From the NCBI GenBank assembly GCA_902514875.1, contig CABXSY010000004.1, positions 16,890 to 80,889 on the forward strand: a stretch of DNA of 64,000 nucleotides. The letters run 5' to 3'. Below the pieces are notes generated by a model. The model worked only from the letters and a program-made list of their open reading frames with translations. It was not told the DNA's origin and did no database searches. The stretch is from an uncultured Alphaproteobacteria bacterium (GTDB lineage Bacteria > Pseudomonadota > Alphaproteobacteria > HIMB59 > GCA-002718135). Below are positions 4,230 to 16,273 of this stretch, piece by piece; the first letter of the stretch is position 1; each line of letters starts with the position of its first letter. The position numbers and the translations under genes are program-made.

Positions 4230-4738
4230 AAAGATTTAACTATACTATAACTATTTAGAGAAAAAATATGAATTTTTTTATTATTTTCAAGGAGGAAGTC
4301 TATAAACTCTGAAGTCTCTATACTTATAGTTGTAGTATTAATTAAGGGGTGGAAGTTAATTATTTCACTATTAAAAAGTTTTTCATCTAAATAAAACTCC
4401 ACAACATTATCTTTGTCATTAAGAAGAGCAAATGGCGAGACTGATCCTGGCTTTATACCCAAAAATTGTTCTAAATATTCAGCATTAGCAAATGATAAAT
4501 TCTTAGCATCGATAGATTTAGAAAATTGCTTTAAATCAACCTTTGCATTTTCATCACAACTAAAAAGAAAAAAATTATTTTTTTTATTTTTTAAAAATAA
4601 ATTTTTTGTATGCTCCCCTTTAATTTCACCTCTTAGATTTTCAGAATCTTCAACTGTAAATAAAGGATCATGATCATGAATTTGAAAATGTTTATTTTTT
4701 ACACTAAGTAATTCAAATAAATCTGTCTTTGTAAGCAT
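4226..4738 (-). CDS. YbaK/ProX-type aminoacyl-tRNA editing domain protein
   Basis: Size and HTKNLFLKNKK..FFL and GSVSPFAL motifs typical of prolyl-tRNA synthetase-associated domain proteins. ATGA overlap with the downstream gene. Confidence 0.65.
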   Translation of the reverse strand: MLTKTDLFELLSVKNKHFQIHDHDPLFTVEDSENLRGEIKGEHTKNLFLKNKKNNFFLFSCDENAKVDLKQFSKSIDAKNLSFANAEYLEQFLGIKPGSVSPFALLNDKDNVVEFYLDEKLFNSEIINFHPLINTTTISIETSEFIDFLLENNKKIHIFSLNSYSIVKSL

Positions 4739-4795
4739 AAATAATATTATATTTATTAAGAAATAAGGTATTTAAATACAATTAGAAAATTAACA

Positions 4796-6280
4796 ATGGA
4801 AAAAAAAGCAGTAGTTATAGGAAGTGGTTTTGGAGGCATTGCGATTAGTTTAAGATTAAAAAAATTAGGCTATGAAACAACAATTATTGAAAAACTAGAT
4901 GAGCTCGGAGGAAGAGCAAGAGTTTTTGAAGTAAATGGTTTTAAACATGACGCTGGACCAACGGTCATAACAGCACCATTTCTTTTTGATGAATTATTTA
5001 GTTTATTTGGAAAAAAAAGAGATAATTATTTGAAATTTGTTCCTCTTGAACCTTGGTATAGGTACTATTTTCATGATGGTAAAACATTTGATTATTGTTC
5101 TACCATCGAAAAAACTAACAGAGAAATCAGTAAATTTGATAAGAAAGATATAAAAGGTTACTATAAACTTTTAAATCAATCAAAAAAAATATTTGATGTG
5201 GGGTTTACACAATTAGCCGATAAACCATTCATTTCTTTTTTTAAAATGTTGGGAGTTATTCCTAATTTGATAATTTTGAAAAGTTTTTTAACAGTATCTC
5301 AACTTGTAAATAGTTATCTAAAAAACCCATATCTTAGAAAAGCATTTTCAATTCATCCACTTTTAGTTGGGGGAGATCCGCACACAACAACATCTATTTA
5401 TGCTTTAATTCATTATTTAGAGAGAAAATGGGGGGTATTTTTTTGTATGGGTGGAACTGGTAAAATCGTATCTGAATTAAAAAAATTGATGATTGATTGT
5501 GGTATTAAAATTAAAACAAACACAGAGGCAAAAGAATTTATTGTTGAAAATAATAGAATAACAAAAATTTTAACAAACAATGAAGAAATTTCCAATATAG
5601 ATCTAGTTGTTTGTAATGCTGATCCACCCATGGTTTACTCCAAACTTTTAAAAAAACAAAACTTAAGAAGACCTGTATTAAAAGAAAAAAACTTATTATA
5701 CTCAATGGGACTTTTTGTTCTTTTTTTTGGTACGAAAAAACAATACCATAAAGTTGCTCATCATACTATTTGGATGACTGAACGATTTAAATCTTTACTT
5801 CATGATATATTTAAAAATAAAGTTTTATCTGATGATTTTTCTTTATATATTCACAGACCTACCGCAACAGACAAGTCATTTGCTCCAAAAGGATGCGATA
5901 GTTTTTATGTTCTATGCCCAGTACCAAATTTAAAAGGTAAAATTGATTGGGATGTTGAATCAGAAAACCTAAAAAATAAGATAGTTAAAGAATTATCGCA
6001 AACAATTATGCCAGATTTAGAAGATAGCATTACAGATGTTTTTTGGATGAATCCTAAAGATTTTAAAAATGATTACAATTCTATGCACGGAGCTGGTTTT
6101 TCTATAGCTCCGATCTTCACACAGTCAGCCTGGTTTAGGTATCACAACAAAGATAAAAAAATCAAAAACCTATATTTTTCGGCAGCAGGATCTCATCCAG
6201 GCGCAGGAATACCAGGCGTGCTGTCTTCTGCAAAAGTAGTTGAAAATATCATTAAAGCTGAATTAAAAATTAATGATTGA
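4796..6280 (+). CDS. crtI: Phytoene desaturase
   Basis: VIGSGFGGIAISLRL..GGRA FAD fold, C-terminal AAGSHPGAGIPGVLSSAKV, operon context. Confidence 0.93.
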   Translation: MEKKAVVIGSGFGGIAISLRLKKLGYETTIIEKLDELGGRARVFEVNGFKHDAGPTVITAPFLFDELFSLFGKKRDNYLKFVPLEPWYRYYFHDGKTFDYCSTIEKTNREISKFDKKDIKGYYKLLNQSKKIFDVGFTQLADKPFISFFKMLGVIPNLIILKSFLTVSQLVNSYLKNPYLRKAFSIHPLLVGGDPHTTTSIYALIHYLERKWGVFFCMGGTGKIVSELKKLMIDCGIKIKTNTEAKEFIVENNRITKILTNNEEISNIDLVVCNADPPMVYSKLLKKQNLRRPVLKEKNLLYSMGLFVLFFGTKKQYHKVAHHTIWMTERFKSLLHDIFKNKVLSDDFSLYIHRPTATDKSFAPKGCDSFYVLCPVPNLKGKIDWDVESENLKNKIVKELSQTIMPDLEDSITDVFWMNPKDFKNDYNSMHGAGFSIAPIFTQSAWFRYHNKDKKIKNLYFSAAGSHPGAGIPGVLSSAKVVENIIKAELKIND

Positions 6281-7154
6281 TTTAAAGCTTAATTCATCGA
6301 CTGATCTTAAGAGGGAAGGTAAGAGTTTTTACTGGGCAAGTTTTTTTTTACCAAAAGCATCAAAAAAGAATGCAGGTATTCTTTATTCAATTTGTAGATA
6401 TTTTGATGATATTGCTGACAAGTATAGTGAAGATCAAACCACTTATCTTAAAAGTTCAATTGAAGAAATAAGAACCAATAAGAATAATAAAGTAAATATT
6501 TTTTTGCAAAAAAATAAAATTAATAATTTAATTTTTATAGATTTAATAGAGGGATTAATCTTGGATCAAAAAAAAATAAGAATTCAAAATGAGGAAGAGC
6601 TAATAAAATACTCTTATCATGTTGCTGGTACTGTTGGATTAATGATGTCTAAAATTATAGGAGCAAAAGATAAAAAGGCAGCACGATCCGCAATTGATTT
6701 AGGTATTGGAATGCAGCTAACAAATATAGCAAGAGATGTTTATGAAGATTCTAAAATGAAAAGAATATATTTACCTGCCAATTGGATACCTGAAATATCA
6801 TTAAAAAATTTAACTGATCTTAATAACAAAAGCTCATACAAAGATGAAAGAATATCAAATGCAATTTATGAAGTAGTAGGTCTTTCAGATAAGTTTTATA
6901 AAAATGGTTTTGCTGGTTTAAAATATATCCCACTATCTACCAGACTAGGCATATTTATTGCAGCTAATGTTTATAGAGGTATAGGTATTAAGATAAAATC
7001 CAATAAAAAAAAATATTTAAGAGAAAGAGTATATTTAAATTTATTAGAAAAATCTTTAATTACAATTAAATCAATTTTACTTTTTATTTTTATCCCCTTC
7101 ATGAAATATGAGTATCAAAAAATTAGAGATAATCTTCCAAATGAAAATTTATAA
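6273..7154 (+). CDS. crtB: Phytoene synthase
   Basis: YSICRYFDDIAD and MQLTNIARDVYED Asp-rich motifs. 8-nt overlap with crtI. Confidence 0.92.
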   Translation: MIDLKLNSSTDLKREGKSFYWASFFLPKASKKNAGILYSICRYFDDIADKYSEDQTTYLKSSIEEIRTNKNNKVNIFLQKNKINNLIFIDLIEGLILDQKKIRIQNEEELIKYSYHVAGTVGLMMSKIIGAKDKKAARSAIDLGIGMQLTNIARDVYEDSKMKRIYLPANWIPEISLKNLTDLNNKSSYKDERISNAIYEVVGLSDKFYKNGFAGLKYIPLSTRLGIFIAANVYRGIGIKIKSNKKKYLRERVYLNLLEKSLITIKSILLFIFIPFMKYEYQKIRDNLPNENL

Positions 7155-8223
7155 AGCTGCAATTATTGGCTTAGGACCTAGTGGTTTAGCTGTAAATAAA
7201 ATTCTTTACGGAGATAATTATAACGAAATCATAGCGTTTGAAAGTGGAGATATAAACAAAAGAGATAATTTTTTTGGTTTTTGGTTAACTGATTGGATGA
7301 AGCCATTTGAGAAAATTATTGAAAAAAAATGGCACAAATGGACAATTGGTAACACAAATACTAAGGTGACTCATACAAGTTTAGATAAACCTTATTGTGT
7401 CATTAGTTTTAAAACGTGGAAAAAATTTTGCTTAGAAACAAAAAATAAATTAGAAATTATAAACAAACAAGTTGTTCAATATTTTCCTGAAGAAAATTAT
7501 TTTAAAATAATCACTGCTGATGACAAAGTATATTATGCTGAAAATATATATGACTCACGATCAGCTAAAGAAAAAAAAGGTGAGCTATTACAACATTTTT
7601 TTGGAATTAACATTACTGTGGCAGATAATACTTTTAATGAAAATAAATTGACCTTGATGCACTTTACGGAAGAAAACAATGTTTTACATTTTATATACAT
7701 CCTGCCATTTAGTCATAATAAAGCGCTAGTTGAATCTACGGTCTTTTCAAAAGATGTTTTTCACAACTCTTGGTATAGAGAAAAAATAAAAGATTACTTA
7801 AAGAAAAATAACATTAATAAATTTAAAGAGCAGAGCTCAGAAAAAGGAGTAATACCTATGTTTTTTGCGGGAGAGAAAAAATCGATCAATTCTAATATCT
7901 TCAATATTGGTATTAGAGGAGGTGCATGCAAGCCCTCTACTGGATATGCCTTTTCATTTCTTATAAAGCAAATCCAATTGTTAAAAAATTCAAAGAAAAA
8001 CTATGTAAATATCCATAATTTTTTAGAAAGAAAAATGGATAAAGTTTTTATTAATTTTTTAAAAAATAACAGAGAAGATGGAAGATCATTTTTAAAGCTC
8101 GCTTCTAATCTAAATGGAAATGAATTTCAAAGCTTTATGATGGGTGAATCAAATTTACTAACTAAGGTAAAAATTATAAATAGTATGCCCAAGCTTCCTT
8201 TTATAAAAGAATTATTTAGATAA
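7141..8223 (+). CDS. crtY: Lycopene beta-cyclase (ORF opens at 7108; ATG at 7141 places the GxGxxG motif at the N-terminus)
   Basis: MKIYKAAIIGLGPSGLA FAD fold, GGACKPSTGYAF motif, position between crtB and blh. Confidence 0.85.
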   Translation: MKIYKAAIIGLGPSGLAVNKILYGDNYNEIIAFESGDINKRDNFFGFWLTDWMKPFEKIIEKKWHKWTIGNTNTKVTHTSLDKPYCVISFKTWKKFCLETKNKLEIINKQVVQYFPEENYFKIITADDKVYYAENIYDSRSAKEKKGELLQHFFGINITVADNTFNENKLTLMHFTEENNVLHFIYILPFSHNKALVESTVFSKDVFHNSWYREKIKDYLKKNNINKFKEQSSEKGVIPMFFAGEKKSINSNIFNIGIRGGACKPSTGYAFSFLIKQIQLLKNSKKNYVNIHNFLERKMDKVFINFLKNNREDGRSFLKLASNLNGNEFQSFMMGESNLLTKVKIINSMPKLPFIKELFR

Positions 8224-8224
8224 T

Positions 8225-9043
8225 ATGTTAGGGGACCTCTCAATTATAAATATTATTTCTTTTTTATTAATTTTTTTCATTGGTCTTCCACATGGTTCGT
8301 TTGATGGCGCAGTTGCTTCTTTAGTAGGTTTTACTAACAGAATTCAATTTCTACAATTTATACTTTACTACTTAATTTTATTTTTTCTAGTCATTTTATT
8401 TTGGTTATATTTTCCTATTATTTCGCTAACGATTTTTATTATAATGACTATTGCCCATTTTGGATTATGTGATTGGACAAACTTTAAAATAAATAAATAC
8501 AAGTATTCTATAAGCTTTACTTATGGAATGACTATTATTTTTGGGATAATATTTTTCAATGAAGATAAATCTTTTTTGATATTTGAATATCTCACAAATA
8601 AAAATATTTACTCAATCCAAAAATATTTTTTCATTCCATATTTTTTAACAGTATTATCTCTAATATATTTTATTTATCTCTCATTTTTTGAAAAGAAATT
8701 ACGAAAAGGAATTATTGAGATTTTATTTCTTTTAATAATTTTTTATTTTTTTGATCCGTTATTTAGCTTTGCAATATATTTCTGTTTTTTTCACACTTAC
8801 AAACACTTAAAACATTTGATTAAAAATATTTATTTAAATTTAAAAAACAAATACTTTGTTATTTACTCCACTATAATTTTTACAGTAATTTCTTGGATTG
8901 GGGGTTTAGGAATTTTTTACTATTTAGTTCAAAATTTATCATTATATGAGTCAATATTAAAAGTAGTTTTTATTGGACTTGCTGCATTAACCCTTCCTCA
9001 TATGCTACTTGTTGATATTGTTTACAGAAGAAGATTTAAATAA
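8225..9043 (+). CDS. blh: Beta-carotene 15,15'-dioxygenase (Brp/Blh family), retinal-forming
   Basis: Polytopic membrane protein with four His motifs (GLPHGSFD, IAHFG, FFHTYKH, LPHM), directly after crtIBY. Confidence 0.88.
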   Translation: MLGDLSIINIISFLLIFFIGLPHGSFDGAVASLVGFTNRIQFLQFILYYLILFFLVILFWLYFPIISLTIFIIMTIAHFGLCDWTNFKINKYKYSISFTYGMTIIFGIIFFNEDKSFLIFEYLTNKNIYSIQKYFFIPYFLTVLSLIYFIYLSFFEKKLRKGIIEILFLLIIFYFFDPLFSFAIYFCFFHTYKHLKHLIKNIYLNLKNKYFVIYSTIIFTVISWIGGLGIFYYLVQNLSLYESILKVVFIGLAALTLPHMLLVDIVYRRRFK

Positions 9044-9095
9044 ATCATTTGCTCATATTGACTTATAAATTCAAAATGGTAATTGTGTGCTTAAA

Positions 9096-9170
9096 GCGGG
9101 CGTAGCTCAGGGGTAGAGCGCAACCTTGCCAAGGTTGAAGTCGAGGGTTCGAATCCCTTCGCCCGCTCCA
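9096..9170 (+). tRNA. tRNA-Gly (anticodon GCC), CCA encoded
   Basis: Hand-folded cloverleaf: acceptor GCGGGCG/CGCCCGC, D arm GCTC..GAGC, anticodon stem CAACC/GGTTG with loop TTGCCAA, T arm GAGGG-TTCGAAT-CCCTT, discriminator T plus CCA. Confidence 0.95.
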
Positions 9171-10522
9171 ATAAAGAGCAAGCGAACACGTACCTCCGAC
9201 ACTTCTACGACAGTCGAGCTTTATTTTAACTCTAGTAAAAATATTAATTGATTAAATTTAGAAATCTTTTTCTAATGATCTTGGGCCTAATATGTCTTCG
9301 TAGAGTCCATTAAAGTACATTAATTGTAATTTAGTATAAGCATCAATTTGATTATTATAAGTACCTGTAGATTTTATAATATCTAGATACCCTGAGGTTT
9401 CAGAATTAAATGATTCAGAAGCAGCTGACCAAATTTCTTCATCATTTATATTATTAGAGGATTTAATTTTATTTTCTATTTCTCTCATTTGTTTTTTTAT
9501 ATCTGACATTTTTGAATAGGTTATATATTGAATTGCATAGTCTTTTCTTGCTTCATATAATTCACGAATTATTAAATAAGTTTTATAAGAATTAAAAAGT
9601 TGACCATAAGCTGAATTATTAAATTCTTCAGCTTCTTTGTAAGCTCTCTCTTGTTCTAGTCTTTGTTTTTCAGCAAGTTCTTTTTCATATTTCTCTCTTT
9701 CAATTCTTTCTTTTTTAATTCTTTCTTCCTCAGCCTTTTTTTCAGCTAATAATCTTCTCTCTTCTTCCTCTTTAGCTTTTCTTTCCTCTTCTATTTTTGC
9801 AATAAGTATTTCCCTTTGTTCTGTATAAGTTAAATTAGTTTTTAGATTTGAGTAACCTATTATCTCCAATTCAGTTAAAAACTTATGACAAATTGGGTTC
9901 ATTTCATTGTGGCAATCCTGCAGACCCTGCTGGTAAAAAACTACTTTATAGAAATATTGATCAGAGTAAAAATTTGATCCTTCAAATCCAAACTTTAGTA
10001 AATATTCCTCTGTATTATTTTCACCAGCTAAGATCTTAAAAGTAGATTCGTAAGGTGTGTTTTGATATTCCCATTGAAGAACCTCTTGTTCGCACGTAGC
10101 TAAATTAGTAGAAATTAAATCTCCATTATCCTTAAAAATTAATTCATTTTGTCCATTATTTTCAAAGTTATTAGTAACAATACCAAAGTTTTTTAGAATA
10201 CTCTCTAGTTCTGATAAATATTTTTCAGGTCCTATCATATTATAATATTCATCAGTTTCATTGTAAAAAGTAATATTTTTTTTAGTACCGCAAATATTTT
10301 TATTAGCTAAAGAATTAGAAGAAAAAAAAATAATAAATATAAAGCTAATTGTTATTCTTATCATAAAAACGAATTATAAATCTTAATATGCATTTCTGCA
10401 ATTTTTAAGATATAATTAAATTAAGCACTTTATTTAACCGACACCTCTCCGACAGTTCAAATTAAAAATAATTAAATTAGAAGCAAAATATCATTGAATT
10501 ATCTTCGCTCAATTGTACATGA
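9171..10522. mobile_element. Putative remnant of a tRNA-Gly-integrated element (att-bracketed 1.35-kb insert, no integrase)
   Basis: Bounded by a perfect 50-nt direct repeat, 9121-9170 (inside the tRNA) and 10523-10572. Contains one ORF. Confidence 0.45.
9258..10364 (-). CDS. Hypothetical secreted protein with a central highly charged E/K/R coiled-coil
   Basis: Signal-peptide-like N-terminus (ISFIFIIFFSSNSLA), 4 Cys in the N-domain, ~60-aa EERKAKEEEERRLLAEKKAEEERIKKERIEREKYEKELAEKQRLEQER helix. No family recognised. Confidence 0.6.
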   Translation of the reverse strand: MIRITISFIFIIFFSSNSLANKNICGTKKNITFYNETDEYYNMIGPEKYLSELESILKNFGIVTNNFENNGQNELIFKDNGDLISTNLATCEQEVLQWEYQNTPYESTFKILAGENNTEEYLLKFGFEGSNFYSDQYFYKVVFYQQGLQDCHNEMNPICHKFLTELEIIGYSNLKTNLTYTEQREILIAKIEEERKAKEEEERRLLAEKKAEEERIKKERIEREKYEKELAEKQRLEQERAYKEAEEFNNSAYGQLFNSYKTYLIIRELYEARKDYAIQYITYSKMSDIKKQMREIENKIKSSNNINDEEIWSAASESFNSETSGYLDIIKSTGTYNNQIDAYTKLQLMYFNGLYEDILGPRSLEKDF

Positions 10523-10572
10523 CAACCTTGCCAAGGTTGAAGTCGAGGGTTCGAATCCCTTCGCCCGCTCCA
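10523..10572 (+). repeat. Orphan copy of the 3' half of tRNA-Gly(GCC) (anticodon stem through CCA); att-like direct repeat
   Basis: 50/50 identity to 9121-9170. The 25 nt upstream match the tRNA 5' half at only 12/25 positions, so it is not a functional tRNA. Confidence 0.9.
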
Positions 10573-10688
10573 AATTCGAGATCGATTTAAGGATAACGCC
10601 CAACATAGGTACAAGTTTAGTTATTATATTTAATATTATAAAAAATATAGTTTAATAACTTCAATATTATTATAACCATTAATAAGCC

Positions 10689-11480
10689 ATGAAGACTTTA
10701 TTTTTTAAAATATTTTATATCATAAGAAAATTACCATTACTTAAAAGACTATCTAACTCTCTTTTAAGAAGAATTCTTTTTAAGATTAACAAAGATAAAT
10801 TTTGTTATAGTTTTAAAGATGTAAAATTTTTTTTGAACATTAGAGATTCAATAGATAGAGAATTATTTATGAATGGTTATTATGAGGAAAAACAACTTAA
10901 TATACTTTCGAAAAGTATAAAAAAATATTCAATTAATAATTTTATAGATATTGGATCAAATATAGGAATTTATTCTATTTTGATGGCTAAAAATCATTCT
11001 AATTTAACTATATACGCATTTGAACCTCACAAAGACGCTTTTAAAAGATTAAAAAAAAATGTGAATTTAAATGATTTTAGCAATAAAATTTACTTATATG
11101 ATTATGCGCTATCAAGTAAAGATGGAGAAAGTTTCCTTGAAACGAAAAATAGATTTGGACTTAGTCAATCTGGGGGGGCTAAAATCAGTGATAATGGGAA
11201 TATAAAAATAAAATATAAAACTGGGGATGATTTAATAAAAATTAAAAATGAAAATATTGCTATAAAAATTGACACGGAAGGTCATGAACTATTTGTTCTC
11301 CATGGCATAAAAAATTTACTTGTTTATAATAAAATCTTTTTGCAAATAGAAATCTTTCCACAGAACATAACTGTTGTAACTCAATTTTTAAATAATTTAG
11401 GGTTTAAATTAATAACCAAAAGTCAATTTACTCATCAAAAAGATATTTTAGACTATTTTTTCGAAAAAAATTTTTCTTAA
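10689..11480 (+). CDS. FkbM-family SAM-dependent methyltransferase
   Basis: IDIGSNIGIYSI, AFEPHKDAFKRLKKNVNLN, IKIDTEGHELFVLHG. Confidence 0.8.
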   Translation: MKTLFFKIFYIIRKLPLLKRLSNSLLRRILFKINKDKFCYSFKDVKFFLNIRDSIDRELFMNGYYEEKQLNILSKSIKKYSINNFIDIGSNIGIYSILMAKNHSNLTIYAFEPHKDAFKRLKKNVNLNDFSNKIYLYDYALSSKDGESFLETKNRFGLSQSGGAKISDNGNIKIKYKTGDDLIKIKNENIAIKIDTEGHELFVLHGIKNLLVYNKIFLQIEIFPQNITVVTQFLNNLGFKLITKSQFTHQKDILDYFFEKNFS

Positions 11481-11585
11481 ACATTGTCTTCTAAGCTATA
11501 AACTTTAGTTTTTGATTAAAAGAAATTATAATATAAATTTAAATATACTATAATATCCTTGTAATTTACGTATATTAATAAATTC

Positions 11586-12392
11586 ATGTTCATAAATAAA
11601 AACATAGACGCTGATAGATTAAAAAACGAAACTAATAATAAGCCAAGTAAGAAGATACCAGTTTCAGGAATTTTTAGAGTAAAAACAAAAAATACAAGCT
11701 TTGATATGTTGGTGGTTAATAGCGATGACACGTCCATATCTGATAGATTTTGGGATGAAAATTATTTTGATTACAGCCTCGAGAAATGGTGTGAATGGTG
11801 CAAGCAAGAAGGTATATATATAGATGTTGGAGCTCACACTGGTTTTTATACTATATCAGCTTTAGTATGTAACAGTAAAAATCATATTATTTCTATAGAA
11901 CCATTCCCTTTAAATTTTCATAGAATAATAACAAATTTAAGATTAAACAATTTTAATAACAAAAATGCAACTTTATTCAATGTTGCAGTATCAAATACTG
12001 ATAAGGAAGTTAAGTTCGATAATAATACATCCCAATATTGGTCTTATTTATCTAAAGGTGGAAAAATAAGTGATAAAGGAAAAGATATTAAAGCAATTAA
12101 GCTAGACAGCATAAATTTTATAAATAACAAAATTGATTTGAAAGGAATCAAAATAGATACTGAGGGTGAAGATCTAAATGTTATTTTTGGAGCTGAAAAA
12201 ATGATTGAGAGTTACAAGCCAAAAATTATAATAGAATGCAGAAAAAACAATATTTTAGACATACTAAAATATTTATCTAAATTTGGTTATAAAAAGATTT
12301 ATGATGAATATGGTAATCGAATAGGTGAAGAAAAATTAGTTTATTTCAATGATGGAGAAAACTCAAAAAACCTATTTTTTGAAATATCGTAG
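11586..12392 (+). CDS. FkbM-family SAM-dependent methyltransferase (divergent paralogue)
   Basis: IDVGAHTGFYTI, SIEPFPLNFHRIITNLRLN, IKIDTEGEDLNVIFG. Confidence 0.8.
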   Translation: MFINKNIDADRLKNETNNKPSKKIPVSGIFRVKTKNTSFDMLVVNSDDTSISDRFWDENYFDYSLEKWCEWCKQEGIYIDVGAHTGFYTISALVCNSKNHIISIEPFPLNFHRIITNLRLNNFNNKNATLFNVAVSNTDKEVKFDNNTSQYWSYLSKGGKISDKGKDIKAIKLDSINFINNKIDLKGIKIDTEGEDLNVIFGAEKMIESYKPKIIIECRKNNILDILKYLSKFGYKKIYDEYGNRIGEEKLVYFNDGENSKNLFFEIS

Positions 12393-12404
12393 ACATACTT
12401 TATC

Positions 12405-12980
12405 TTATTCATTAAAATATATATACTGGTTTATATTTGGGTATTTCTGTTTAAATTCTAAAAAAATTTTTTTCCATTCTTCCTGATCCTTCAAAGAGAG
12501 ATGTATATTTTTACCATCTTCAAAATATTTAGAAGCTGGCATTGTTGCTATAACCACAAAAATAAATTTATTTGATAATTTAAATAATTCCTCAATAAAA
12601 TTTAGTACGTCCTCTTCAGGAATGTGTTCAACTACATCAGTACAAATTATACCATCATACTTTTTTTGTGGATACGTAGAGTATTCTTCCAGCCCAGGAT
12701 CATACAAATAAATATTTTCTATATCCCAAAAAGAACCCAGGTTTGTAAATTCTTTATCCCCAATCCTAAGTTTATTTTTATATAAAAATGCTTTTCCACA
12801 TCCGAAATCTAATAATGAATTGCAATTATTCATTTTAATTATGTCTCGTATCTTTACTACCCATTTAGTAAGAGAATAACCTAAAAAAGTACGCGGCCCC
12901 GGAAGTTTTTTAGTACCATTTTCATGAAAGTCTTTATATTTTTTTATAACATCATAATAGTATTTAGAAAACTCATTCAT
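12405..12980 (-). CDS. Class I SAM-dependent methyltransferase
   Basis: LLDFGCGKAF motif I and DGIICTDVVEHIPEED motif. Confidence 0.75.
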   Translation of the reverse strand: MNEFSKYYYDVIKKYKDFHENGTKKLPGPRTFLGYSLTKWVVKIRDIIKMNNCNSLLDFGCGKAFLYKNKLRIGDKEFTNLGSFWDIENIYLYDPGLEEYSTYPQKKYDGIICTDVVEHIPEEDVLNFIEELFKLSNKFIFVVIATMPASKYFEDGKNIHLSLKDQEEWKKIFLEFKQKYPNINQYIYFNE

Positions 12981-13168
12981 AATTATTTATTATAACAAGT
13001 TAAATCAATTATATATATAAATCTAATTAATAAATATAAAAAAAACCCAACATAACATCTTTTAATTCAGCATTTGTCGCTAATATTTTCAATTTAAAAT
13101 ATGATGATAGAAGAAGCTTCAAAAGGAGCAAATTTATTATTATAAGTTTCATAATAATAATAAATTCA

Positions 13169-13930
13169 ATGGAAAAACCTATTGTAGTCTATACTGATCA
13201 TATAATTAATAAAACTTTGTGTTATCATTTTGCAAAGGGATCAGATTCACTTTTATGCCATGTTAGTAAATTTAAAGATTTTAACAAATCAATTGCCACA
13301 TATGGTGTTCTTAGGGGTACTCTTGAAGTTATTAGGAATGTTAAAAATTATTATTACATGGACCATGGTTATTTCAATCAATCAAAAAGATCTTTTGAAA
13401 ATAATCGCACTAATGTAATTAATTTAGATGGATATTTCAGAATAGTTCATAATAATTTTATTCATAATGGCGTTGGTAAATTTCCAGACGATAGATTAAA
13501 AAAGCTTAACCTTGAAATACTTGAGCAAAAGAAAAACGGTAGTTACATTATTTTGTCTGAACCCTCAGATGCAATGAAAAAAGTTTATAATGTTCCAACT
13601 TGGGCAGAAGATACAATAAAACTAGTAAAAAGGTATACGGATAGAAAAATTATATTGCATAATAAATTTTCTAAAGACCCTTTAAAAATTTTATTAAAAG
13701 ATGCATGGGCTTTTATTAGTTTGCAATCTACAGCAGGTTTTATGGCAATGTTAAACGGTGTTCCTTCATACTTTACTGATCCATCACTTAAAAATATAAG
13801 TAAAATAAAAGATATTGAAGACCCAATAATTGACTATAATATATTTAACAGTTTAGCTTATGGCCAGTGGACACTAAAAGAGATGGAATCTGGTGAAGCT
13901 TGGGAAACTATTTCTAAGAATAAAGATTAA
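13169..13930 (+). CDS. Hypothetical protein (possibly glycosyltransferase-like C-terminal half)
   Basis: Long ORF with coding-like composition. ISLQSTAGFMAMLNGVPSY resembles a GT-B donor-binding segment. No firm family assignment. Confidence 0.5.
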   Translation: MEKPIVVYTDHIINKTLCYHFAKGSDSLLCHVSKFKDFNKSIATYGVLRGTLEVIRNVKNYYYMDHGYFNQSKRSFENNRTNVINLDGYFRIVHNNFIHNGVGKFPDDRLKKLNLEILEQKKNGSYIILSEPSDAMKKVYNVPTWAEDTIKLVKRYTDRKIILHNKFSKDPLKILLKDAWAFISLQSTAGFMAMLNGVPSYFTDPSLKNISKIKDIEDPIIDYNIFNSLAYGQWTLKEMESGEAWETISKNKD

Positions 13931-13940
13931 AAAAAAATGT

Positions 13941-14543
13941 TTAATTTGATTTGTTTTGAATTGTAATATTGAAGCTTATTACAATTCTTTCTTCATTAGA
14001 AAGATTTTCATTTACTGAGTGATCAAGATAGCTTGGAAATAATACTAAAGCACCTTCTTTTGGACTTATTCCATTTACTTGAGCATTAAGCAAATTAGGT
14101 TTCTGTGCTTTTGGATATGTATAAACAGGTGCTGGCCTTGGATCATAAAAAACAATATTTCCTGAGTTCTTTGGAGCACGAACATAATATGCTCCACTTA
14201 TTGTGCTATTACCATGTTGGTGTCTTAAATTTGCAGAACCTCCTGTATTTATTATTGCCCACATATTATTTATATTGATTGATTGTTTTTGTTTTTCCCA
14301 ATTCATATCAGTGATTACTTGCTCAATAGCTGGCAATATAAATTTTATAAAATTTTTAGGTTCATTTTCTTGCATATTAAAGTCTTTTGAATGCCAACCT
14401 TTAATATTACTTTTACTAATTCCTTGCTGATCTTTTGATTGAGTAATTTTAATAAATTTATACATTTGTTTGTTAATTGACTGATAATCACTTAATTGAA
14501 GTGTCCAAACAGGTGTGGGGAAAAAAAGATTTGGTTTGTTCAT
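13941..14543 (-). CDS. 2OG-Fe(II) oxygenase superfamily protein (TIGR02466/2OG-FeII_Oxy_5-like)
   Basis: FPTPVW N-terminus, HQHGNSTISGAYYV, LVLFPSYLDHSVNEN His/Asp-His facial-triad context. Confidence 0.75.
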   Translation of the reverse strand: MNKPNLFFPTPVWTLQLSDYQSINKQMYKFIKITQSKDQQGISKSNIKGWHSKDFNMQENEPKNFIKFILPAIEQVITDMNWEKQKQSININNMWAIINTGGSANLRHQHGNSTISGAYYVRAPKNSGNIVFYDPRPAPVYTYPKAQKPNLLNAQVNGISPKEGALVLFPSYLDHSVNENLSNEERIVISFNITIQNKSN

Positions 14544-14614
14544 AAATTATTTCTATATCAATTTATTACTTCAGTAAACTAGTCTAATTGAATCTATTAA
14601 AATAATCAATTTTC

Positions 14615-14770
14615 TTAATTCTTTTTGGAACGAAAATATTTTTTTATTAAATCTATTGTCTTATTTACTCTCCATTCGTAGAAATAGAATCTTTTCCTCC
14701 CAGATGCAATTTTCGGATTATCCTTAATCAGGGTTTTTATGTAATCTGGAATTTTATATCTGTTACTCAA
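14615..14770 (-). CDS. Possible small basic protein (51 aa, TTG start overlapping the purH stop as TTGA)
   Basis: Own translation: (M)SNRYKIPDYIKTLIKDNPKIASGRKRFYFYEWRVNKTIDLIKKYFRSKKN. 52 stop-free codons in a locally GC-richer stretch. No homology recognised. Confidence 0.25.
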   Translation of the reverse strand: MSNRYKIPDYIKTLIKDNPKIASGRKRFYFYEWRVNKTIDLIKKYFRSKKN

Positions 14771-15684
14771 TGTTTGAAAAGTCTATTTTTAATAAAATAC
14801 AATGAAATTTTATTTTCTATAGAATAAGAAATTATTTTTTTATCATTTATTGAACCTTTTGGCTGTGCTATAATATTACAACCTTTTTTATTAAGTAATC
14901 TTATACTATCTGTGAATGGGAAAAAACCATCAGAAGCACAAACAAATTGTTTTTTTTTAAAATATTTATTCATATTTTTTATTGCAAAATTAAGTGCATC
15001 AAATCTGTTTGTTTGGCCATGACCCAGCCCTACAGTTTGTTTATTTCTTGAAAGTACTACAGCGTTTGATTTTAAGTGTTTAGCCACTTTGAGTGAAAAT
15101 ATTAAATCATCAATCAATTTTGACGATGCTTTTTTAACTGAAGCTAAATTAAGAAACTTTTTATTAATAGGTGTCAAGTCTTTGGTTTGATACAAATCAC
15201 CAAAAAGAGTAGATTTATATTCAATATTTTGTTTTTTAATTTTCGGTATTTTTAATAAAATTAATTTTTTCTTTTGTTTTAAAATATTTAATGCATTTTT
15301 ATCAAAATCAGGTGAAACAACCATTTCATAAAATTTTTTATGTATTTTTTTTGCTAATTGTAAATCTACTTTTCTATTTAAAAAAATTATTCCCCCAAAA
15401 GCACTTTTAGGGTCGCTATTATAAGATTTAATAAAAGCACTTGTAATATTATTAGATGAAGCAACACCACAAGGATTTGTATGTTTAACAATTATTGATG
15501 TAGGTTCCCTAAACTCTTCTAAGCATTTTAGACCACTATCAAGATCAATTAAATTATTATAACTTATAATTTTTCCACTCAGTTGAAAATTAAAAATAGA
15601 ACTTTTTTGTTTGTTAATTAAGTATGCTTTTTGATTTGGATTTTCACCATATCTTAGTATAACTTTTTTATTTTTGGTTTTCAT
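14767..15684 (-). CDS. purH: AICAR formyltransferase domain of PurH (separate ORF)
   Basis: LRYGENPNQKAY near the N-terminus, C-terminal ..RLFKH as in PurH. In a different frame from the upstream IMP cyclohydrolase ORF. Confidence 0.88.
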   Translation of the reverse strand: MKTKNKKVILRYGENPNQKAYLINKQKSSIFNFQLSGKIISYNNLIDLDSGLKCLEEFREPTSIIVKHTNPCGVASSNNITSAFIKSYNSDPKSAFGGIIFLNRKVDLQLAKKIHKKFYEMVVSPDFDKNALNILKQKKKLILLKIPKIKKQNIEYKSTLFGDLYQTKDLTPINKKFLNLASVKKASSKLIDDLIFSLKVAKHLKSNAVVLSRNKQTVGLGHGQTNRFDALNFAIKNMNKYFKKKQFVCASDGFFPFTDSIRLLNKKGCNIIAQPKGSINDKKIISYSIENKISLYFIKNRLFKH

Positions 15685-16273
15685 CTAACCAATCAGAAAT
15701 TAATTTATCATAACTAGAAGTACCTTTAAAAATTTTATAAGCCATTTTTTTTCTAAAAGAAAGGTCAGTAACCCCATTATTTTTTTTTAAATTACTAATA
15801 AGTTTCTTATAGTCCTTAACATCCATAATGGGAGTAATATATCTAAAGTTCTTACCAGATGCTCTAAGTAGACTTGGGCCGCCAATGTCAATCATTTCTA
15901 TTTTATCATTAATATCTTTTCTTTTTAAGTATTTATGAAAAGGATATAAATTTACGATAATAATATCAATTTCAGGAATTTTTAATGATAGAAATTGTTT
16001 TTTATGAAATCCATTTTCTCGTTTATAAAGAAGAGAGCTATATATTAATGGATTTATTGTTTTAACTCTTCCATCAAACATTTCTTTATATTTAGTAATT
16101 TTAGAAACATCCTTACATTTAAAACCCATATCTCTTATTTTTTCACCAGTTGACCCAGTTGAAATAAATTTATAATTATATTTACTTAGATTAGCACAAA
16201 GATATCGTAAATTTTTTTTGTCAAATACTGATATTAGAGCATATTTCTGTTTTAAATTTTTTGTAATGACCAT
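15668..16273 (-). CDS. purH: IMP cyclohydrolase (MGS-like) domain of PurH (separate ORF)
   Basis: ALISVFDKKNL, STGSTG, FDGRVKTINP, VNLYPF, IDIGGPSLLRA. Confidence 0.88.
   Translation of the reverse strand: MVITKNLKQKYALISVFDKKNLRYLCANLSKYNYKFISTGSTGEKIRDMGFKCKDVSKITKYKEMFDGRVKTINPLIYSSLLYKRENGFHKKQFLSLKIPEIDIIIVNLYPFHKYLKRKDINDKIEMIDIGGPSLLRASGKNFRYITPIMDVKDYKKLISNLKKNNGVTDLSFRKKMAYKIFKGTSSYDKLISDWLDENQK

Follow-up and report, generated by a model that had tools for sequence, protein, structure and literature searches.

A probable integrase-less mini integrative element at a serially used tRNA-Gly hotspot of SAR11 bacteria

Results

A duplicated tRNA-Gly 3' part brackets a single-gene cassette

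The 64,000-nucleotide stretch analysed here (contig CABXSY010000004.1 of assembly GCA_902514875.1; referred to as the window) is AT-rich, with a G+C content of approximately 27%, and carries at its tRNA-Gly(GCC) gene a short cassette that resembles an integrative element lacking an integrase. A crtI-crtB-crtY-blh block (4796–9043) lies immediately to the left of the tRNA. The blh gene, the tRNA and the parts of the cassette are as follows.

8225–9043, plus strand: blh (beta-carotene 15,15'-dioxygenase; PF15461, E = 3e-49), final gene of the crt block and conserved left flank of the hotspot
9096–9170, plus strand: intact tRNA-Gly(GCC), called by ARAGORN, the sole tRNA of the window; proposed integration target (attB), regenerated at attL
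9121–9171, plus strand: left 51-nt core, from the anticodon stem to CCA plus one base
9196–9213, plus strand: left arm-like pair CCGACAC-TTCT-ACGACAG, period 11, 24 nt past the core; putative P'-type sites
9258–10364, minus strand: ORF368, the sole cargo gene (open reading frame [ORF] of 368 aa), with a signal-peptide-like N terminus and a helical C-terminal part
10438–10455, plus strand: right arm-like pair CCGACAC-CTCT-CCGACAG, period 11, 85 nt before the core; putative P-type sites
10507–10522, plus strand: tRNA-like att extension GCTCAATTGTACATGA, containing a T.GTAC..G motif
10523–10573, plus strand: right 51-nt core (attR), the displaced tRNA 3' part, where homology to metagenome contig L155 stops exactly

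The sequence at 9121–9171 recurs at 10523–10573 as an exact direct repeat in the same orientation. An earlier note on this DNA had reported the duplication of the tRNA 3' half as 50 nt; it is real, and its length is 51 nt. The repeat starts one base inside the anticodon stem, and identity stops at 9120 (G) versus 10522 (A). Each 25-nt half of the repeat has two exact occurrences in the 64 kb, with none expected from 100 shuffles. The DNA between the cores is unique rather than duplicated and, as the earlier note had said, contains one long ORF only. The hallmarks of a tRNA-integrative element are present: an intact tRNA at one end, a displaced 3' copy at the other and an identity block whose start, at the anticodon stem base, is one of the canonical sublocations. 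The window cassette does not have its own integrase beside the att site; in the whole 64 kb, neither tblastn (best E = 0.38) nor hmmsearch (best E = 0.19) detected an integrase of the family found in its sister elements, which agrees with the earlier remark that no recombinase is enclosed.

The tRNA-Gly locus is a serially used hotspot in related genomes

With blh as the anchor, 68 syntenic loci were collected from SAR11 single-cell genomes, one per species-level cluster, with blh identities of 70–95%; these loci and the other contigs compared are designated by L numbers. The tRNA-Gly was 100% identical in all 67 loci that extend to it. At least one extra direct copy of the tRNA 3' part was present downstream in 49 of these 67 loci: 22 had one copy, 21 had two, four had three, and single loci had four and five, leaving 18 with none. 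Together with the window's own copy, the 85 copies in related loci gave a total of 86, of which 50 were perfect across at least 50 nt. The 86 inter-copy intervals formed 51 sequence clusters of 0.5–7.5 kb. The earlier note had named, as the outcome that would tell against an integration event, the same 50-mer with the same content in every related genome; the opposite was found across the SAR11 loci, where presence and content vary at the same site. Its suggestion of a serially used integration site is likewise borne out by the zero to five extra copies with varied content, and the blh-tRNA-Gly locus is a serially used hotspot in which numerous cassettes stand in tandem with a small number of complete elements that encode an integrase and, in some cases, a primase.

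The left identity boundary fell at tRNA position 25 in 52/86 copies, at positions 25–26 in 55 and at positions 24–29 in 67. A second boundary class, at position 53 where the T-loop starts, accounted for 11/86 copies. Williams is said to have provided the original classification of tRNA integration sublocations in 2002. The boundaries at positions 25 and 53 fit the known anticodon-loop and T-loop sublocations, two symmetric sites that are used by different integrase subfamilies (bioRxiv 10.1101/2020.11.02.365908). The attL/attR interpretation first given for this DNA is upheld by the predominance of the boundary at the anticodon stem base, and also by integrases located directly past the tRNA in sister elements.

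Cassettes of the T-loop class are bounded by the final 23 nt of the tRNA only (for example, L044 11706–13899, L003 13221–15543, L036 10949–11742 and L016 11682–13292) and have arm pairs of the TTGCAATATAG or TTCAATAGAG type; no integrase assignable to this class was seen in the fetched loci.

A further early proposal, that attP carries extended similarity to the tRNA, received partial support. Lengthened leftward to 67 nt (9105/10507), the repeat remains 90% identical, and 11 of the 24 positions ahead of the right core match the tRNA 5' part, compared with 4.8 ± 1.9 for interior 24-mers. The T.GTAC..G motif, located within the last 8 nt before the right core, recurs in unrelated cassettes, and the tRNA-like similarity 5' of the core is therefore a family-wide att-site feature. 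Three of the 86 copies reach tRNA position 3–4. Long displaced copies were seen at L047 12229–12303, L026 17383–17455, L030 13428–13499 and L054 12919–12990, and in the L047 copy ARAGORN calls a second tRNA-Gly(GCC) despite a diverged 5' half. Whole tRNA genes seem to be the ancestors of the att sites borne by the elements.

Loci without a detectable second copy mostly start with cassette-like left ends, so truly empty sites are rare. The nearest to an empty site was L058, in which the homolog of the window from 13169 onward begins approximately 270 nt past the tRNA. The empty-site junction that the earlier note had proposed to look for, the tRNA joined directly to the window's right flank, occurred in none of the 68 loci, and the window cassette itself was absent from all 68.

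Arm-like repeat pairs with an 11-nt period lie at both cassette ends

Most cassettes, integrase-bearing or not, have a pair of 7–9-nt direct repeats near each end. The repeat motif is specific to the cassette family (CCGACAC, GGGACAC, GTCCCAC, GTAGCC, GTGTGACA, GCAGTAG, ATCGGCA, TTGCAATATAG and others). By strict exact matching, the same non-AT 6-mer was found in tandem at both ends of 28/86 cassettes, compared with a mean of 2.6 and a maximum of 7 when ends were paired at random. The period was exactly 11 nt in 56/56 pairs, with 9–13 nt permitted. The first repeat lies approximately 24, 36 or 47 nt past the left core in the main families and 84–87 or 93–97 nt before the right core in 23 of 25 scored anticodon-class cassettes, and the offset steps approximate one helical turn. 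Other offsets were found in three cassettes with a right-end integrase or of the T-loop class.

In the window, the pattern CCGACACN5CGACAG has two matches, with none expected in 64 kb. Repeat sites thus stand on both sides of the core at fixed distances, which is the arrangement, at the level of the sequence, of an attP served by a heterobivalent integrase; we infer that the pairs are arm-type binding sites of a lambda-like enzyme of this kind. Cassettes of cluster 2 were conserved along their whole length, which left a test for selection on their arm pairs no power to discriminate. A comparison of L040_c2 with L002_c1 revealed a re-bracketed cassette with a perfect outer pair and an inner, older pair that has decayed.

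Two sister elements share the left end and encode an integrase

Over its left 47 nt, the window cassette has 94% identity to L057, in which this left end leads into an integrase gene. The left end AAAGAGCAAGCGAACACG is common to L057, L173, L032 and L043 and is followed by the CCGACA arm pair, which is degenerate in L043; L173, a metagenome contig with the full tRNA, continues from the same left end into the start of an integrase. The right arm motif and the 85-nt offset of the window cassette recur in L032, and L061 (761 bp) shares the arm pairs and the right offset, not the left-end sequence. The window, L032 and L057 cassettes, which have unrelated cargo, diverge mutually 1–3 nt past the left arm pair. 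The earlier description of a decayed or recombinase-in-trans mini-island is supported by these data: matched arm-like pairs are present at both ends and the integrase is missing, whereas L057 and L173 have one.

Two features of the window cassette are those of a cis-mobilizable element (CIME). It is att-flanked like an integrase-bearing relative whose ends it shares, and it is devoid of recombination and transfer genes, with a single ORF of no Pfam or NCBIfam family and no integrase signal.

Two further members of the CCGACA family were noted. The L032 cassette is 754 bp long and its only ORF (11005–11469, minus strand) encodes 154 aa with a LexA DNA-binding domain (PF01726, E = 4e-8); L043 has an L032-type left end and no detectable right-hand tRNA copy.

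Tyrosine recombinases (PF00589) begin approximately 78 nt past the tRNA in L057, L066 and L031 (E = 1e-16 to 1e-19), and a more distant integrase is located at the opposite module end in L026 and L063. The R-K-H-R-H-Y catalytic columns are conserved with the exception of L031, which is without the second His. Alignment with lambda Int begins at approximately residue 60, leaving a conserved N-terminal domain of approximately 60 aa ahead; the arm-binding domain of lambda Int is N-terminal. The 5.8-kb L066_c1 encodes an integrase and an 868-aa DUF5906/P4-type primase between arm pairs that are matched at both ends, and it looks like a complete element. The motifs found beside integrases are as follows.

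L057 and L173: CCGACAC
L066: GCGTCTCC
L031: GGTCACA
L026 and L063: GTGTGACA
L186: CACACCAC
L189: ATCGGCAC

The integrase family is diverse and abundant in marine metagenomes, with 263 clusters at E ≤ 1e-30, mostly on 1.1–1.5-kb contigs; the closest cluster has 94% identity and 101 member sequences. The nearest integrases of cultured phages, from T7-like temperate podoviruses, are 32–36% identical. Truncated integrase genes are frequent in the hotspot (L033, L018, L042, L041, L009, L039 and the second cassette of L155).

A contig from another SAR11-like lineage, L186 (JGI Ga0211537_1000111, 8839–10002), has a tRNA-Gly(GCC) directly followed by an integrase that is 70% identical to that of L057. 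Its synteny differs, with purH and tetratricopeptide repeat (TPR)-sulfotransferase genes on one side and a ribose ATP-binding cassette (ABC) transporter on the other, and it has its own arm pair, CACACCAC twice.

Integrase-less cassettes are shared between genomes

The window cassette was recovered on two metagenome contigs. Contig L155 (3.6 kb) begins exactly at the core and is 98.9% identical to 9121–10573; to the right of the cassette it has a different neighbour, a truncated integrase followed by two decayed tRNA copies. The Tara contig L069, from three samples, matches 9135–10480 at 98.4% and breaks within the core. A metagenome scan with the left-end 18-mer gave 30 matches, of which 28 were chance occurrences in unrelated GC-rich DNA and two, L155 and L173, were relevant.

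Other integrase-less cassettes link more distant genomes. The sulfotransferase cassettes of L006 (array rank 1) and L033 (rank 3) are 99.6% identical, compared with 81.6% for the crtY-blh flanks, and a 0.5-kb cassette in L037 and L049 is 99.4% identical, compared with 83.6% for the flanks. The two types were found in both orders. These data are strong evidence that integrase-less cassettes other than that of the window spread horizontally.

The earlier note had proposed a search of pelagiphage sequences for the 50-mer as attP; the search, made in IMG/VR, was negative. The exact 50-mer matched only one GC-rich prophage bearing a whole tRNA and no AT-rich contig, and a scan with a 23-mer returned mostly phage-encoded tRNAs together with three AT-rich attP-like sites of different sequence. 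Relatives of the integrase in IMG/VR were only 29% identical.

The three AT-rich viral contigs, L077 (IMGVR_UViG_3300036820_000038), L120 and L139, contain an attP-like partial tRNA-Gly(GCC) from the anticodon stem to CCA, in which bases of the anticodon stem and variable region differ from those of the window tRNA; they may represent phages or satellites from other lineages for which tRNA-Gly is likewise the target. The GC-rich, prophage-bearing contig L076 has a 75-nt tRNA-Gly(GCC) identical to that of the window (4318–4392), with an integrase-sized ORF (4429–5658, 409 aa) just upstream of the tRNA on its coding strand, and presumably comes from a distant bacterium.

Cargo of the cassettes

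ORF368 has a hydrophobic N terminus, a conserved middle part containing Cys and His, and a long C-terminal coiled coil or helical bundle; these features suggest a probable exported protein. It belongs to no Pfam or NCBIfam family, its exact protein had no existing record on look-up, and its homologs comprise seven clusters only, all metagenomic. The AlphaFold model was poor (mean predicted local distance difference test [pLDDT] score 61.8), with confidence in the C-terminal helices alone, and Foldseek found no match to it in the PDB with E ≤ 0.001. Counts from a promoter and terminator scan of the window cassette were not above those of shuffled sequences.

Among cassette protein families with a minimum length of 100 aa, 56% have an N terminus that is signal-peptide-like or transmembrane-like by a crude hydrophobicity test, compared with 24% of window core ORFs. 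The cargo of other cassettes includes sulfotransferases, type I and C5 restriction-modification, McrB-like proteins, a major facilitator superfamily (MFS) transporter and a flavodoxin-like protein.

Cassettes associated with other tRNA genes

Single-gene cassettes whose products are homologs of the window cargo (49–55% identity) were seen at tRNA-Leu(TAG) in L183 (1–1537) and L185 (1–1676), metagenome contigs with P0004 and P0003, respectively. Their layout is a mirror image, with the tRNA 5' half and upstream region duplicated on the far side, and their arm pair, TGTCCCC-N4-TGTCCCC with period 11, is the reverse complement of the GGGGACA pairs at tRNA-Gly. Because of these mirror-image cassettes, the phenomenon is not confined to the tRNA-Gly locus.

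A complete tRNA-Ser(TGA) on the minus strand stands 8 nt from the right arm pair in cassettes with the GTCCCAC pair (L040 12598–12687, L034 14902–14991, L011 12617–12706, L016 14383–14472, L038 13881–13970 and L054 14081–14170). Inside these cassettes, the older GGGGACA pair of a sulfotransferase cassette is decayed and the outer GTCCCAC pairs are perfect. This tRNA-Ser(TGA) may have been captured, or it may survive from an att site formerly located in a tRNA-Ser gene.

The right part of the island

To the right of the cassette, the window continues as follows.

10574–13130: rest of the variable island, with two FkbM-type methyltransferases and one other methyltransferase (Pfam)
13169–14543: semi-conserved right flank before purH, with a 253-aa hypothetical protein and a 2-oxoglutarate (2OG)-Fe(II) oxygenase, recognized by recurrence in other loci

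Counterparts of 10574–13130 in other loci are patchy or absent, and 13130–14766 recurs in many loci; the variable island of the window is therefore taken to extend from 9171 to approximately 13130. The methyltransferase block is probably older island content. In the window, neither a further decayed tRNA copy to the right of 10573 nor a matching 'GTCCAA' arm pair bounding the block was found above background. Directly past the right core, 10605–10622 (CGCCCAACATAGGTACAAG) weakly resembles the GTCCAACATACGTCCAAG arm pair after the last tRNA copy of L033, an unproven hint that the block may be the remains of an older cassette.

The purH gene (14767–16273, minus strand) is split at an A-rich run into two overlapping ORFs, 14767–15684 and 15668–16273, which reflects either an assembly frameshift error or a pseudogene; in L186, purH is a single gene of 507 aa.

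Discussion

A probable mini integrative element

The observed anatomy of the locus, the family relationship of the cassette, the hotspot and the horizontal sharing of integrase-less cassettes make it likely, in our judgement, that 9171–10573 is a CIME-like mini integrative element without an integrase, inserted by a tyrosine integrase at the anticodon-loop sublocation of tRNA-Gly in a serial hotspot. The cassette would have entered tRNA-Gly(GCC) by tyrosine-integrase recombination that regenerated the tRNA at attL and displaced its 3' part to attR. What such an element would need in cis appears to be retained, namely, two identical 51-nt cores and an 11-nt-phased CCGACA-type pair beside each. 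The integrase gene is missing from the cassette, and related elements that share its left end and arm pair carry one directly past the tRNA. Excision and re-integration would be performed by an integrase in trans, or would occur in cis with a neighbouring integrase-bearing element, as for CIMEs; the window cassette is probably movable in trans, and its current mobility is a prediction. The predicted attP junction would consist of CCGACACCTCTCCGACAG, 67 nt ending in GCTCAATTGTACATGR, the 51-nt core and ATAAAGAGCAAGCGAACACGTACCTCCGACAC, on a circle of approximately 1.4 kb.

Several observations weigh against this interpretation. No circular or attP junction and no empty site was found for the window cassette, and no viral contig with a matching attP was found in IMG/VR. 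The match to the arm-binding domain PF14657 was weak (E = 0.003) and limited to L066. An integrase 85% identical to that of L057 adjoins a different motif, ATCGGCAC, so integrases are assigned to arm motifs only by adjacency. An element of the CCGACA family that is complete, having both an integrase and matching arms at its two ends, is missing from the data, because the right end of L057 belongs to another family. The left pair of the window deviates from those of L155 and L069, with ACGACAG in place of CCGACAG in the second repeat and one spacer change. An age gradient along the arrays, with distal copies more decayed, was not significant (Wilcoxon p = 0.24). Neighbouring cassettes may have been lost, and such loss, instead of movement of the cassette itself, could account for what separates the window from L155. 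The matched arm pairs are themselves no proof of current mobility because internal deletion of a larger element also leaves them.

In the strongest alternative, the cassette would be an inert scar, produced by internal deletion of a larger integrase-bearing element, now immobile and passed on either by vertical descent or together with the island through ordinary homologous recombination. We regard this as rather unlikely. An internal deletion would leave matched ends, and the two changes in the left pair relative to L155 and L069, the failure to find an attP junction, the 64 kb free of a detectable sister-family integrase and the truncated integrases common in the same hotspot all speak for a scar. 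However, the displaced core is still perfect (51/51) in a genome of 27% G+C, when decayed copies with 84–96% identity exist elsewhere, and both arm pairs keep their exact period and offsets. The points at which the three CCGACA-family cassettes diverge, 1–3 nt past the arm pair, are not random deletion endpoints, and genomes with flanks of approximately 82% identity share other integrase-less cassettes at different array ranks.

A second alternative attributes cassette gain, loss and reshuffling mainly to RecA-dependent homologous recombination between the 51-nt repeats, and between the conserved blh and purH flanks, after DNA uptake; the arm repeats would then be leftovers. The repeats are long and mostly perfect (50/86), recombination between repeats can yield both-order arrays and deletions, and SAR11 islands are reported, in the available part of PMC11796062, to be without canonical mobile elements. 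What makes this explanation distinctly improbable is that the exact 11-nt period and the helically phased offsets are kept in many unrelated integrase-less cassettes, that the re-bracketed cassette has a perfect outer pair around a decayed older one, and that a diverse and abundant integrase family is located at exactly this site. In addition, the 23-nt core class is rather short for efficient RecA recombination.

A cryptic prophage, the remnant of a pelagiphage with tRNA-Gly as attB, is very unlikely. Although tRNA genes are the attB of HTVC019P-type pelagiphages (bioRxiv 10.1101/410191) and the nearest phage integrases are those of the T7-like podoviruses, neither the window cassette nor any of the 86 modules examined contains a phage gene, no phage with a matching attP was found, the 50-mer is absent from AT-rich IMG/VR contigs, where the integrase has only distant relatives, and the complete element at this site pairs an integrase with a primase, a gene set reminiscent of satellites or tycheposons. 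That the repeat arose as an artefact of assembly or amplification, or through local partial duplication of the tRNA without any link to mobile DNA, is effectively refuted: single-cell and metagenome assemblies can form chimeras at repeats, but the cassette has both cores in two independent metagenome contigs (L069 and L155), the same architecture appears in dozens of independent single-cell genomes, and the interior is unique.

Comparison with known systems

The basic signature, a tRNA with a displaced 3' copy, is classical, and tandem accretion with integrase-less derivatives is already known. CIMEs and accretion of this kind, known from the ICESt1-type elements of streptococci, are catalogued in ICEberg (PMC6323972). 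The SAR11 cassettes are like CIMEs in that they are att-flanked, have lost their own recombination module, share the att site with related integrase-bearing elements and form tandem arrays. They differ in that the arrays are devoid of genes for conjugation or mobilisation, the units are far smaller (0.5–1.5 kb, usually one gene), many arm-motif families meet at one tRNA and the host is a streamlined marine oligotroph; mobilisation is here a prediction.

Tycheposons of Prochlorococcus islands, in the part of the study by Hackl et al. available to us (bioRxiv 10.1101/2020.12.28.424599), are tandem elements separated by partial tRNAs, with degenerate remnants. The shared features, as far as that part describes them, are tyrosine-recombinase elements at island tRNA genes, scattered fragmented integrases and extra partial tRNAs, adaptive or defensive cargo, and a primase in some elements. 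The SAR11 hotspot also shows integration at an island-bordering tRNA with partial copies between tandem elements. Unlike tycheposons, the window cassette does not have the hallmark recombinase and replication genes. In the same available part, where SAR11 does not come up and words starting in 'arm' are absent, integrase-less single-gene units with conserved phased arm pairs were not found described.

The att sites resemble attP of the lambda, L5 and HP1 types, which belong to heterobivalent tyrosine integrases acting on tRNA genes at the anticodon-loop or T-loop sublocation. The identity block extends from the anticodon stem to the tRNA 3' end, the integrase gene adjoins attP, and the core is flanked on either side by direct-repeat pairs at constant distances in phase with the helix; the integrases have an additional N-terminal domain of approximately 60 aa ahead of the region aligning with lambda Int. 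In contrast to those systems, the element is reduced to attP and a single gene, and binding to the repeats is putative.

The likeness to integron cassettes is one of function: small units, mostly with a single gene and no recombinase, stand in promoter-proximal arrays, use one docking site and are exchanged between genomes. The boundaries, unlike those of integron cassettes, are direct repeats of part of a tRNA with arm-like pairs, and the genes lie in both orientations. The integron-integrase model scored 21.6 bits on the L026 integrase, compared with a cutoff of 265, and did not match that of L057; the attC hairpin, the IntI and the attI/Pc platform of an integron were not seen, and no search aimed at attC was made.

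Partial repeats of a bordering tRNA have been noted before. According to the accessible text of Molina-Pardines et al. 2025 (PMC11796062), they occur in four islands of the same organism group, SAR11, with no canonical mobile elements and one integrase, and the available part of PMC10872708 describes additive flexible islands with tRNA-Lys repeats in Methylophilaceae; as here, the partial repeat of the bordering tRNA within the island is read in these texts as a sign of cassette insertion. Arm pairs, integrase families, repeat classes and cassettes identical across species were not found described in those parts of the two papers.

Recombinase-associated mobile regions of Pelagibacter are frequently near tRNAs (PMC11876622), and virion-encapsidated integrative mobile elements (VEIMEs), a type of phage satellite, are reported for Pelagibacter (PMC9618062 and PMC11876622), as stated in the portions of these papers available to us. 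Judged on those portions, such small integrase-plus-primase elements have the gene set of L066_c1, and elements of the VEIME type are a possible vehicle for cell-to-cell transfer. They differ from the hotspot, where no capsid-interaction or packaging genes were identified, and from the window cassette, which has neither integrase nor primase. In the available parts of the literature cited here, we found no earlier description of a single tRNA-Gly hotspot with a population of integrase-less, mostly single-gene cassettes whose arm-like pairs are conserved, helically phased and of many specificity families.

Implications for flexible-gene turnover in SAR11

SAR11 is the most abundant marine bacterium. 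Its genomic islands are usually described, in the accessible text of PMC11796062, as having no canonical mobile elements, which raises the question of how it acquires flexible genes. The locus offers a concrete mechanism, in which a tRNA-Gly serves as a docking site used serially by diverse and abundant tyrosine integrases. The hotspot is occupied mostly by tiny integrase-less cassettes, some of them near-identical between genomes whose core genes differ by almost 20%. Their cargo (restriction-modification, McrB-like defence, sulfotransferases, transporters and probable exported proteins) is expected to matter for phage resistance and niche adaptation. With a defined core, arm pairs and a cognate integrase, these elements could become tools for gene insertion in SAR11.

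A broader proposal, which we advance tentatively as a possibility that the balance of evidence does not yet favour, is that SAR11 runs an integron-like cassette economy on lambda-type tyrosine integrases and tRNA genes in place of IntI and attC. Integrase-less single-gene cassettes of many specificity families would each carry a complete miniature attP (core and phased arm pairs), and a small share of satellite-like elements that do encode an integrase would routinely excise them, pass them from one species to another and insert them again at tRNA hotspots, here tRNA-Gly and, in the mirror-image form with homologs of the window cargo, tRNA-Leu(TAG). If true, this would be a main route by which flexible genes turn over in an organism usually portrayed as having no mobile elements.

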